A stretch of DNA of 64,000 bases, taken from the NCBI RefSeq assembly GCF_003790525.1, contig NZ_CP033633.1. The stretch is one strand, 5' to 3'. The notes beneath the pieces are model-generated. The model saw only the letters and a list, made by a program, of their open reading frames with translations. It was not told where the DNA came from and searched no databases. This DNA comes from Escherichia coli (GTDB lineage: Bacteria; Pseudomonadota; Gammaproteobacteria; Enterobacterales; Enterobacteriaceae). The position numbers and the translations under genes were made by a program. This document shows, in pieces, positions 20,109 through 23,304 of this stretch (position 1 is its first letter; each line of letters opens with the position of its first letter).

Positions 20109-20164
20109 GGGTGATGCTGCCAACTTACTGATTTAGTATATGATGGTGTTTTTGAGGTGCTCCA

Positions 20165-20440
20165 GTGGCTTCTGTTTCTATCAGCTGTCCCTCCTGTTCA
20201 GCTACTGACGGGGTGGTGCGTAACGGCAAAAGCACCGCCGGACATCAGCGCTATCTCTGCTCTCACTGCCGTAAAACATGGCAACTGCAGTTCACTTACA
20301 CCGCTTCTCAACCCGGTACGCACCAGAAAATCATTGATATGGCCATGAATGGCGTTGGATGCCGGGCAACAGCCCGCATTATGGGCGTTGGCCTCAACAC
20401 GATTTTACGTCACTTAAAAAACTCAGGCCGCAGTCGGTAA
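20165..20440 (+). CDS. insA: IS1 InsA
   Basis: 91-aa [38 protein letters not shown]... Confidence 0.9.
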
Positions 20441-20862
20441 CCTCGCGCATACAGCCGGGCAGTGACGTCATCGTCTGTGCGGAAATGGACGAACAGTGGG
20501 GCTATGTCGGGGCTAAATCGCGCCAGCGCTGGCTGTTTTACGCGTATGACAGGCTCCGGAAGACGGTTGTTGCGCACGTATTCGGTGAACGCACGATGGC
20601 GACGCTGGGGCGTCTTATGAGCCTGCTGTCACCCTTTGACGTGGTGATATGGATGACGGATGGCTGGCCGCTGTATGAATCCCGCCTGAAGGGAAAGCTG
20701 CACGTAATCAGCAAGCGATATACGCAGCGAATTGAGCGGCATAACCTGAATCTGAGGCAGCACCTGGCACGGCTGGGACGGAAGTCGCTGTCGTTCTCAA
20801 AATCGGTGGAGCTGCATGACAAAGTCATCGGGCATTATCTGAACATAAAACACTATCAATAA
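20359..20862 (+). CDS. insB: IS1 InsB (expressed as InsAB' by frameshifting)
   Basis: 167-aa ORF overlapping insA. Confidence 0.85.
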
Positions 20863-20877
20863 GTTGGAGTCATTACC

Positions 20878-21071
20878 CGAACTAAAGAGGGGATGGCTGT
20901 TGCCCGTTCAAAGGGAAAATTGAAAGGAAAACAGCCTAAATTATCTGAAAAACAACAAAAAGAACTATGCCGTATGCGTGATACTGGCCAGTACTCTATC
21001 AGCGATCTAGCGGAACTATTTACCGTCTCGCGTGCAACGGTTTATCGAACACTTTCACGAGGACAAAAATG
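20878..21071 (+). pseudogene. C-terminal HTH fragment of a serine recombinase, cut by IS1
   Basis: Translation RTKEGMAVARSKGKLKGKQPKLSEKQQKELCRMRDTGQYSISDLAELFTVSRATVYRTLSRGQK* begins exactly at the IS1 junction. Confidence 0.55.
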
Positions 21072-21331
21072 ACCGATTTAACTACACAGCAACATCTAGT
21101 AAAAATTGTCCATGATTATGCCTGCCCTCAAAAGGGTCATGGACAGTCCATCAAAGGTTCAAATGGATTACATCTGCATTCAATACCCAGATTACTTCCG
21201 CTTTGCTAAATGGATAGAACGGTTGGCGTAGGGTATTGTTGATGGTGTAATTAAAGTTCCTAAAGATCATTAAAATATCAGATCGGAAATTTAGGCGGTT
21301 CCGGCGTAGAACCCAGAACCCCTTATCCGAA

Positions 21332-22195
21332 TTATTGTTCAGTTAACTTCATTTCGACAAGTAAAGGTAAATGATCTGAGACAGATGCATATGGCTTACT
21401 TTCAGGGGTCGCTCTATCTGACGGTTTAGGAATATATACATCTTTAATGTCCCATTTTTGAGCATTTGATGTAAGTATATAATCAATTTTCCTGTCTGGA
21501 TTCCATGATGGTGCCGTGTACTTCAATTCCTTATCAGTGTCATTGAACCATGCTGTTAAATCCAAGTACTCTGTTGATTGAGGTGGTAAATTAAGATCAC
21601 CCACTATAATTGGAAGTGCATTTTTAAACTGCCAAGAAGAGAATTCTGTTTGAAGAGTTCTTACTTGCTCTGCTCGTAATGGCTGCGTAGTGAAGTCCAA
21701 ATGAGTAGTTACTAACATAACAGGCGCAGGATAATTAGGGACATCAACTTCTACAGCACAGGCCGCTCTTTGCTCCGCACCTTTGATGTTAGGTAGTTCC
21801 ATCCTTTTACTCAATTTCAAATCATACTTAGACAGTACTGCTGTACCATATTCCCCACCATCATGATCTATAGCCTTGCAGAAGTAATAATTCATTCCCA
21901 ACTTATTAGCTATATACTCTGCTTGATTGACTGGGTTAGAACCCTCTTTACTAAAGTTCTTACCAGAACGCCCAGTCATGTTATCAACTTCTTGCAGTCC
22001 AATAATATCAACATTCATTTTACGAATTGCTTCTACAATGGCATCAGTACTCCCCATTCTAGAGGCCATTATGTTATATGACCCAACACGAATACTATCG
22101 GTATCTGCTGGACCATCCATGAGGCGATCAGAAGCTAAAGTTGAAGAGGAAAGAACTATAAACCCTATAACCGCAGCAATGCTTGTTAATTTCAT
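21332..22195 (-). CDS. secreted endonuclease/exonuclease/phosphatase (EEP, DNase I-like fold) family protein
   Basis: Signal peptide MKLTSIAAVIGFIVLSSSTLA; ...DIIGLQEV... near N-terminus and ...SDHLPLLVEM... near C-terminus; AT-rich. Confidence 0.65.
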   Translation of the reverse strand: MKLTSIAAVIGFIVLSSSTLASDRLMDGPADTDSIRVGSYNIMASRMGSTDAIVEAIRKMNVDIIGLQEVDNMTGRSGKNFSKEGSNPVNQAEYIANKLGMNYYFCKAIDHDGGEYGTAVLSKYDLKLSKRMELPNIKGAEQRAACAVEVDVPNYPAPVMLVTTHLDFTTQPLRAEQVRTLQTEFSSWQFKNALPIIVGDLNLPPQSTEYLDLTAWFNDTDKELKYTAPSWNPDRKIDYILTSNAQKWDIKDVYIPKPSDRATPESKPYASVSDHLPLLVEMKLTEQ

Positions 22196-22376
22196 TTTTA
22201 CACCTTGTTATTTTTGATAGTAAATTTACATATCAAAATAAATCATAAAATCGCTTTTTTTAGTGATAAAAACCTCAAAAACAAAAACAATTAGTGATCA
22301 ACATCTCATAAGTAGTACATTTATCAACCGTTCCATTAATGTTTCATTCTATCGCGAATTAGGTAATGACTCCAAC

Positions 22377-22880
22377 TTATTGATAGTGTTTTATGTTCAG
22401 ATAATGCCCGATGACTTTGTCATGCAGCTCCACCGATTTTGAGAACGACAGCGACTTCCGTCCCAGCCGTGCCAGGTGCTGCCTCAGATTCAGGTTATGC
22501 CGCTCAATTCGCTGCGTATATCGCTTGCTGATTACGTGCAGCTTTCCCTTCAGGCGGGATTCATACAGCGGCCAGCCATCCGTCATCCATATCACCACGT
22601 CAAAGGGTGACAGCAGGCTCATAAGACGCCCCAGCGTCGCCATCGTGCGTTCACCGAATACGTGCGCAACAACCGTCTTCCGGAGCCTGTCATACGCGTA
22701 AAACAGCCAGCGCTGGCGCGATTTAGCCCCGACATAGCTCCACTGTTCGTCCATTTCCGCGCAGACGATGACGTCACTGCCCGGCTGTATGCGCGAGGTT
22801 ACCGACTGCGGCCTGAGTTTTTTAAGTGACGTAAAATCGTGTTGAGGACAACGCCCATAATGCGGGCTGTTGCCCGGCAT
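22377..22880 (-). CDS. insB: IS1 InsB
   Basis: Near-identical to 20359-20862. Confidence 0.85.
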
Positions 22881-23074
22881 CCAACGCCATTCATGGCCAT
22901 ATCAATGATTTTCTGGTGCGTACCGGGTTGAGAAGCGGTGTAAGTGAACTGCAGTTGCCATGTTTTACGGCAGTGAGAGCAGAGATAGCGCTGATGTCCG
23001 GCGGTGCTTTTGCCGTTACGCACCACCCCGTCAGTAGCTGAACAGGAGGGACAGCTGATAGAAACAGAAGCCAC
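22799..23074 (-). CDS. insA: IS1 InsA
   Basis: Near-identical to 20165-20440. Confidence 0.9.
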
Positions 23075-23304
23075 TGGAGCACCTCAAAAACACCATCATA
23101 CACTAAATCAGTAAGTTGGCAGCATCACCCAGGGGGCCAGTCTAGCAGATTATGGTGCGCAGTTATACAACAGCAGTAATGAGGAGTCTACTATTTCTCT
23201 TGTTATGCCAGATGCAATTGAATGGAACGGAAAGAATACGCCAAGACGGCAATACATGATAAAATATATTGCCGTATTTAAATATTAAAATTTATTTTTG
23301 TAGA

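Follow-up and report, generated by a model that had tools for sequence, protein, structure and literature searches.

A gene for a predicted exported EEP-family protein between inverted IS1 copies on an Escherichia coli plasmid: probable remnant of a Vibrio-type Tn3-family transposon

In a 64,000-nt stretch of Escherichia coli DNA (contig NZ_CP033633.1 of assembly GCF_003790525.1; hereafter the window), two copies of the insertion sequence IS1 in inverted orientation enclose a short AT-rich segment carrying a gene for a predicted exported protein of the endonuclease/exonuclease/phosphatase (EEP) family. Was this gene brought in by the IS1 pair as a composite transposon, as an earlier note made from the sequence alone had proposed, or does the bracket have a different history? 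The 3-kb feature is very probably a decay product of a Vibrio-type Tn3-family transposon within an ordinary plasmid mosaic, and not a unit that arrived whole. Chance is excluded as the source of the IS1 bracket and its contents, and public records of identical E. coli plasmids annotate the IS1 copies, the EEP gene and the resolvase fragment alike. The enclosed segment (20878-22361; 1,484 bp) has a G+C content of 0.381, against 0.619 for the eit transporter block to its left. As the note had described, it holds a 287-aa EEP gene (21332-22195, minus strand) with a signal peptide and the C-terminal part of a recombinase, here recognized as codons 128-191 of a tnpR resolvase gene.

The 1,484-bp segment matches 41 plasmids, of which 27 are from E. 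coli, eight from Vibrio, three from Photobacterium, two from Proteus and one from Providencia. In plasmid p12100-PER of Providencia rettgeri, the EEP gene has as neighbours a Tn3-family transposase gene of 3,048 nt and a complete gene for a 191-aa resolvase. This locus contains three copies of one repeat: a left inverted repeat (IRL; 4392-4423), an internal copy (IRR'; 8407-8437), which has right-end orientation and lies between tnpR and the EEP stop codon, and an outer right-end copy (IRR; 10552-10583). The layout of the full element is IRL - tnpA - tnpR - internal IRR' - EEP gene - outer IRR, and the characteristics of the Tn3 family, namely a Tn3-type DDE transposase (tnpA), a serine resolvase (tnpR) and inverted repeats beginning GGGG, are all present. 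From IRL to outer IRR the element measures 6,192 bp and has the 5-bp direct repeat AGTAA on both sides, a hallmark of Tn3-family insertion.

Some plasmids carry only the 4,046-bp core of this element (IRL to IRR'), with its end precisely at the repeat. Its identity is 100% in two plasmids of Proteus terrae and 92-93% in plasmids of V. campbellii, V. parahaemolyticus and P. damselae; autonomy of the core is indicated by these exact boundaries and not by target-site duplications. The passenger module of V. tapetis plasmid pVT1 extends, free of IS1, as far as the outer repeat. Plasmids of Vibrionaceae and of aquatic or animal-associated Enterobacterales are the typical setting of the element. A literature search for a named three-repeat Vibrio transposon found nothing relevant. 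In pVT1 (approximately 9170-9548), the interval from the EEP upstream region to the outer IRR contains about 85 bp of extra DNA, absent in the Providencia and E. coli versions. This extra DNA holds a 21-nt IRL-like sequence, GGGGTTCTGCGCCGGAACTCC, which together with the outer IRR delimits a miniature inverted-repeat-bounded element of about 390 bp, a hint as to how the passenger gene was captured.

The inner segment of the window can be read as successive parts of this transposon. The 3' fragment of tnpR (20878-21072, plus strand) comprises codons 128-191 and the stop codon, encoding the helix-turn-helix (HTH) domain of a resolvase whose full 191 aa are encoded in relatives. It is 99.6% identical to p12100-PER, with window position 20878 aligning to locus position 8001, within a 'recombinase family protein' coding sequence at 7620-8195; RefSeq labels the fragment 'HTH domain-containing protein, missing N-terminus'. 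The tail of the core, from tnpR to the right inverted repeat (21073-21283, plus strand), holds a degenerate remnant of a small third open reading frame (ORF). These approximately 210 bp contain short ORFs only (46 and 41 aa), and RefSeq marks a pseudogene fragment in this region of a related plasmid. The third ORF (window counterpart 21069-21283) is degenerate in the E. coli copies, and PADLOC gave no match for it. At the corresponding locus of V. campbellii pLMB143 (6800-7072), a 90-aa third ORF overlaps the tnpR stop codon and is annotated 'arylsulfatase regulator'.

The internal right-end repeat IRR' (21284-21322) is of Tn3-family type. Its 32-nt sequence, CGGAAATTTAGGCGGTTCCGGCGTAGAACCCA (21284-21315), matches the IRL/IRR of the transposon at 31 of 32 positions and is followed by a tip with a 7-bp duplication, GTAGAACCC-AGAACCCC. 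This tip is present in all EEP-bearing copies and lacking in core-only copies, in which the repeat ends ...GTAGAACCCC. Next comes the EEP passenger gene, and then 166 bp of native EEP upstream region (22196-22361, minus strand), at whose end CGCGAATTA served as target for the right IS1. This upstream region is collinear with V. tapetis pVT1 and Providencia up to the right IS1. Scans for promoters and terminators gave nothing beyond shuffled expectation, the lone promoter-like site (22269-22242, minus strand) being at chance level. The remaining parts of the Tn3-family element (tnpA, IRL and outer IRR) are absent elsewhere in the window. Judged by what it retains, tnpR codons 128-191 and the internal repeat, the window carries a fragment of a Tn3-family element and not a member of the family. 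The foreign origin that the note had deduced from base composition is thereby given a direction, the nearest DNA relatives being in V. tapetis and in Vibrio and Photobacterium plasmids.

The two IS1 copies themselves are complete. The left copy (20110-20877, plus strand) is IS1A-like and cuts the resolvase gene as what would be a secondary insertion; the right copy (22362-23129, minus strand) would be an ancestral insertion in the passenger module of the transposon. The note had given the right copy correctly and had begun the left one at 20109, one base early. Both have the defining features of IS1: a length of 768 bp, terminal inverted repeats, insA and insB' frames (insA, 91 aa; insB, 167 aa) and an A6C frameshift site in the slippery run TTAAAAAAC. 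In identical plasmids RefSeq labels them 'IS1A family transposase, programmed frameshift'. They differ from each other at four positions over 768 bp. A repeat search returns an inverted repeat of 774 nt (20104-20877 and 22362-23135), with arms 99% complementary and spaced 1,484 nt apart; the six bases beyond the IS1 ends match at four of six positions, which is chance.

Is this pair a working composite transposon like Tn1681, inserted as one unit with the EEP gene? Such an origin is very unlikely. What speaks for it is the complete pair, with insA/insB' and terminal repeats intact, inverted around a short cargo; inverted IS1 pairs, such as that of Tn1681, were reportedly found able to transpose by So, Heffron and McCarthy in 1979. 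The outer flanks of the pair, CAGCCTCAG and CAGGGGGCC, form no duplication, so that the check for target-site duplication at the outer ends suggested in the note was negative; the flanks of the left IS1, CAGCCTCAG and CGAACTAAA, give none either. Comparison of direct and reverse-complement pairings of 8-12 bp found no 9-bp target duplication for the unit, the left IS1 or the right IS1. In an EEP-free relative, the left flank runs on into an intact immunity gene and what is left of an HNH colicin nuclease; in the 3 kb retrieved past that point, the DNA that lies to the right of the bracket in the window does not appear, so that the bracket is not a simple insertion. The same left junction is seen in all 12 copies in PLSDB, and the right IS1 pre-dates the bracket. 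The mobilisable IS1 unit of the note thus survives in form only: there is no 9-bp duplication, there is one left context, and the vehicle was of the Tn3 family. The bracket is a composite in form alone, and the pair of intact IS1 copies could, in principle, still allow transposition of the unit.

A third complete IS1 is present in the window (31808-32575, plus strand), with five to seven differences from the left and right copies. It is flanked by TCATAATTG and AACTATTAC, which form no target duplication. It was considered as a missing partner and rejected, its flanks matching none of the others; an 18-nt BLAST extension from it into AT-rich DNA was weak and judged to be due to chance.

The junctions of the IS1 copies indicate their relative age. 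In Providencia, an IS1 occupies the site of the window's right-hand copy within the intact transposon, with its own 9-bp duplication, CGCGAATTA; the right IS1 is therefore older than the bracket. Its inner junction with CGCGAATTA is constant in all ten relative loci checked (from IncK2/Z plasmids, IncHI1B plasmids, a ColE1-remnant context and Providencia), and its outer flank takes eight forms. It follows that the right IS1 has repeatedly reshaped the DNA beyond its outer end and remained joined to the EEP gene. Across the left IS1, tnpR codon 128 faces a truncated bacteriocin immunity gene of the colicin/pyocin DNase type (19934-20109, minus strand), of which the C-terminal 58 codons form the outer flank of this IS1; in an identical plasmid RefSeq labels this gene 'bacteriocin immunity protein, missing N-terminus'. 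In plasmid p1517k an intact 85-aa immunity gene follows eitD, and homology to the window ends exactly at IS1. The intact immunity gene and subsequent HNH nuclease remnant of the EEP-free relative indicate that a bacteriocin module formerly followed eitD.

All 12 PLSDB records with the exact 1,484-bp bracket have the same left junction, with eitD and the truncated immunity gene. The right junction is common to ten of them, and the other two have the gat operon past the right IS1. These records thus offer one context, and the same IS1-EEP-IS1 unit was not found among them at two or more unrelated target sites. One plasmid, p135-1, has the left IS1 only, followed by the cytochrome b562 gene with its 3' (C-terminal) part deleted; this state is an IS1-adjacent deletion that started at the left IS1 and removed the EEP module.

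Three independent IS1 brackets have formed around the EEP gene, none with a target-site duplication. Apart from the window type, these are in pHI1B-o111 (inverted IS1 copies with a 1,060-bp insert, the left copy 30 bp past the EEP stop codon) and pGF4-A (direct IS1 copies, approximately 2.7 kb, around tnpA'-tnpR-EEP); both have inner boundaries other than the window's and lie in the ancestral backbone context. Repeated bracket formation, the lack of a target-site duplication and the single eitD context together argue that the bracket came from IS1 rearrangements and not from one transposition event. In two E. coli IncHI1B plasmids, a stretch of about 10 kb between inverted IS1 copies, running from a PerC regulator through the Tn3-family element to the EEP gene, is found in opposite orientation. 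Their flanks, TCGGCCTTG and CAAGGCCGA, are each other's reverse complements, a sign that recombination between the two IS1 copies has inverted the stretch.

A probable history can be drawn from these junctions. The EEP gene would first have been the passenger of a three-repeat Tn3-family transposon with a Tn1721/Tn1722 layout. An IS1 would then have entered the still complete transposon, 166 bp ahead of the EEP start codon. At this right IS1 the DNA would have been broken repeatedly, by deletions next to it, by replicative events and by recombination between IS1 copies, and such events would have spread a block of EEP gene and IS1 into several E. coli plasmid backbones, with loss of the outer repeat. 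In the IncK2/Z-type poultry plasmid lineage to which the window belongs, another IS1 in inverted orientation would have ended inside tnpR, opposite the truncated immunity gene.

Some observations weigh against this reconstruction. No clean 5-bp duplication was found around the two core-only copies checked (Proteus and V. campbellii). The order of the IS1 events is a reconstruction from present-day relatives. The base at the inner-junction tip is T in some lineages and G in others, and so IS1 copies have been exchanged or converted, which blurs their ancestry. The inner tip of the EEP-side IS1 is TGTA in Providencia and the IncHI1B lineage, as opposed to the canonical GGTA, and the tips in the window lineage are canonical. 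The other tip of the Providencia IS1 (locus 9485-10252), CACT, is non-canonical too, and an 11-bp target duplication can also be read there. Such differences between lineages suggest conversion between IS1 copies.

What, then, does the passenger gene encode? Pfam PF03372 covers residues 39-275 of the product (model positions 2-225 of 225, E=9.7e-17), which bears out the family assignment of the note, and the fold is the four-layer alpha/beta sandwich of the EEP superfamily. In an alignment of 45 homologues, N41, E69, G117, H165, G199, D200, N202, D238, D274 and H275 are invariant; the set includes the EEP catalytic motifs (N, E, D-x-N, D and D-H), the absence of which the note had named as grounds for abandoning its assignment. 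An hhalign comparison with E. coli ExoIII (97% probability) sets N41, E69, D200 and N202 opposite N7, E34, D151 and N153 of ExoIII. The protein probably hydrolyses a phosphoester by the canonical metal-dependent EEP mechanism, as a putative Mg2+-type phosphoesterase, in which E69 would serve as metal ligand and H275/D238 as general base.

The AlphaFold model has a pLDDT of 92, and comparison values were 24.5 for human nSMase2, 23.1 for nocturnin, 23.0 for CNOT6L and 22.5 for TDP2, against 19.4 for ExoIII, 18.2 for DNase1L3 and 16.8 for CdtB. A profile search of PDB sequences returned 4ruw (1e-25), 3teb (2e-21), Bacillus cereus sphingomyelinase (6e-16), nocturnin (7e-16), beta-haemolysin (1e-15) and Bt3783 mannosyl-6-phosphatase (1e-11); DNase I and CdtB were not within its best 60, and a single-sequence search of PDB sequences gave no match. 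No NCBIfam model passed threshold, the only matches being below-threshold ones to xth, MnuA and ExeM. Neighbours in AFDB50 carry generic 'EEP family' names only. PADLOC found no defence system and PHROGs gave no match. The closest relatives are uncharacterized bacterial EEP proteins, then neutral sphingomyelinase, nocturnin and TDP2, with DNase I and CdtB far off. The profile search proposed in the note to sub-classify the domain thus takes it away from the DNase I/CdtB subgroup, to which neither its closest structural nor its closest sequence relatives belong, and homology points to no single substrate.

The N terminus, MK-LTSIAAVIGFIVLSSS-TLA followed by SD, has the n-h-c layout of a Sec-type signal peptide, with an AXA-type cleavage site at 21/22. 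This layout recurs in close homologues, and some distant ones have a lipobox instead. By way of Sec, the protein most likely reaches the periplasm and may travel further. The secretion part of the note's 'candidate secreted effector' accordingly stands as predicted periplasmic export, and the effector part is the least supported of the functional options. The EEP gene is intact, and from its codon differences to the V. tapetis copy (13 synonymous and six non-synonymous) it appears to be under purifying selection.

Above 44% identity, homologues come only from Vibrio, Aliivibrio, Photobacterium, Aeromonas and Pasteurella atlantica, and the G+C content of the gene matches Aliivibrio-type genomes and lies below its surroundings in Aeromonas and in a prophage. 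Aliivibrio and Aeromonas share a block of ABC transporter - GDPD - ROK regulator - (GalT) - EEP - 485-aa protein - GDPD. In two low-G+C metagenomic genomes, a same-strand operon reads enolase-superfamily (MR_MLE) - EEP - sugar-type binding protein - two permeases - SDR - ATPase. The Pasteurella atlantica homologue is a lipoprotein form encoded in a capsule locus, with LicD and a Stealth sugar-1-phosphate transferase next to it, and in V. nigripulchritudo the neighbours are GH88, PL8 and lacto-N-biose phosphorylase genes. These neighbourhoods, together with the Bacteroides mannosyl-6-phosphatase Bt3783 and its uncharacterized relatives as near neighbours, favour a sugar- or glycerol-phosphate (phosphoglycan) ester as the probable substrate; a nuclease comes second, and a CdtB-like toxin is unlikely. 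Several points weigh against this preference. The argument on substrate is indirect and the closest structures are uncharacterized; in the profile search, nocturnin and the bacterial sphingomyelinases reach equally good scores; the contexts in Photobacterium (umuDC) and V. fluminensis (PIN/CAP) are uninformative; and the Sec signal would speak for crossing of the inner membrane only, not for release from the cell or for expression in E. coli.

A secreted DNase or a CdtB-like genotoxic effector, acting on host or competitor DNA, is an unlikely identity for the protein. The catalytic set is common to ExoIII and DNase I, the hhalign result for ExoIII is of high probability, and the below-threshold NCBIfam match to xth points the same way. 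The same gene in V. tapetis, pVT1_73, was recorded in 2011 as encoding an exported ExoIII-like protein (signal sequence, COG0708) with role unassigned, and secreted nuclease activity was noted in V. tapetis (PMC3033894). An 80%-identical homologue is, moreover, a prophage cargo gene. It lies in Logan SRR25120492 (contig positions 6001-6864) in a P22-like prophage, with portal and holin-endolysin genes either side, and has a G+C content of 0.37 in a locus of 0.48. Among 50,697 sequenced phages no close counterpart of the EEP protein was found, tblastn giving one distant match (31% identity). There are no cdtA/cdtC partners in the 1,484-bp segment, in which, besides the EEP gene and the resolvase fragment, no ORF exceeds 46 aa, and no CdtA/CdtC-type partners in the complete transposon of p12100-PER.

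Still less probable is a membrane-active cytolysin of the sphingomyelinase or phospholipase C type. The profile E-values for sphingomyelinases (6e-16 to 1e-15) are the basis for considering it; they equal that of nocturnin, so this signal is generic to the EEP clade and counts against the idea. The mature protein, of approximately 265 aa, is also shorter than the bacterial sphingomyelinases (approximately 300 aa), and the neighbourhoods described above are carbohydrate and glycerophosphodiester loci, not haemolysin loci.

Does the gene benefit its host at all? It is found in 32 of 5,426 complete E. coli genomes (0.6%), mostly from poultry, and is plasmid-borne with the ORF intact in every one. 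That it is silent baggage in E. coli, kept only by the adjoining active IS1 with no gain to the host, is a somewhat improbable reading, which the low carriage and the deletion of the gene in one relative would fit. In pLH50-c-A homology stops 2 bp upstream of the ATG, with loss of the native promoter and ribosome-binding site, so that expression from this right end is doubtful, and a promoter signal rises above chance nowhere. Against the idea, the ORF is intact in all 32 genomes even though flanking homology ends at at least five points on the left and at least three on the right, none within the ORF, and synonymous changes outnumber non-synonymous ones in comparison with the Vibrio copy.

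A broader role may be suggested with little confidence. The family would be a periplasmic or surface phosphoglycan or sugar-phosphodiester esterase, captured repeatedly by mobile elements and kept for a gain in colonization or nutrition in poultry-associated E. coli; the captures counted here are one by a Tn3-family transposon, one by a P22-like prophage and those in IS1-linked blocks, which are seen on three or more types of E. coli plasmid. We know of almost no characterized bacterial examples of such an activity outside Bacteroides.

The surroundings of the bracket are those of a poultry plasmid. Positions 14000-30000 of the window are 100% identical to chicken E. coli plasmids of approximately 130 kb (e.g. 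CP119729), and relatives with the first 10 kb of this region (e.g. CP029742) are typed IncK2/Z, MPF_I. The high-G+C block (15816-19856, plus strand; G+C content 0.62) consists of the siderophore-type ABC transporter genes eitABCD and an MFS gene, EitA scoring 696 bits against an NCBIfam equivalog cut-off of 640; an invertase/resolvase-like gene (14871-15461) lies just upstream. A literature search on the plasmid type and eitABCD found nothing relevant. Directly outside the right IS1, a cytochrome b562-like gene (23305-23712, minus strand) has its own signal peptide and a G+C content of about 37%, and is compositionally foreign. A 528-aa ORF beyond it (24079-25665, minus strand) matches the C-terminal two-thirds of the TraI/MobA(P) relaxase at 170 bits (cut-off 250) and appears to be a truncated MobP-type relaxase. 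Further away, a 1,165-aa autotransporter adhesin of the AIDA-I/MisL type is encoded at 1601-5098 (plus strand).

The locus carries a caution, in that the picture of a gene between two insertion sequences in raw sequence is not necessarily that of a composite transposon. Vibrionaceae-type DNA, 97% identical to a plasmid of a clam pathogen, is present in E. coli plasmids of several incompatibility groups from poultry, wild birds, fish gut and humans. The enzyme belongs to a small uncharacterized exported clade, and a sugar-phosphodiester role, if true, would be a new substrate class for bacterial EEP proteins. If the broader role suggested above were correct, the locus would mark a route from aquaculture-type Vibrionaceae to Enterobacterales of farm animals for a trait other than drug resistance. 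No long-standing question hangs on the finding.

Among known systems, the parent element most recalls Tn1721/Tn1722, studied by Schmitt and co-workers, in which a minimal transposon has a one-sided extension closed by a third inverted repeat. Both have an autonomous minor transposon (tnpA, tnpR and two inverted repeats), a passenger segment and a third repeat oriented like the internal one. The passenger here is the EEP gene alone, whereas Tn1721 carries tetA/tetR and a duplicated tnpA fragment; the repeats here are about 32 nt long and of other sequence, with a 7-bp duplication at the internal tip; and the window keeps the last 195 bp of tnpR, the internal repeat and the passenger, without tnpA, IRL or the outer IRR. 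IS1 composites are represented by Tn9, with direct IS1 copies, and by Tn1681, in which inverted copies surround a heat-stable toxin gene. The window resembles Tn1681 in its complete inverted pair around a short cargo gene, and differs from both in the lack of a 9-bp duplication, in its single genomic context and in having one IS1 older than the bracket. For the protein, the Bt3783 mannosyl-6-phosphatase of B. thetaiotaomicron and its relatives (PDB 4c1r, 3mpr and 3g6s) are near neighbours, at an identity of 15-22% only. A further counterpart is pVT1_73, the same gene as that of the window, with 97% DNA identity and six amino acid differences; the pVT1 module, unlike that of the window, has no IS1, retains the outer IRR and, towards tnpR, is truncated by an IS6-family element.

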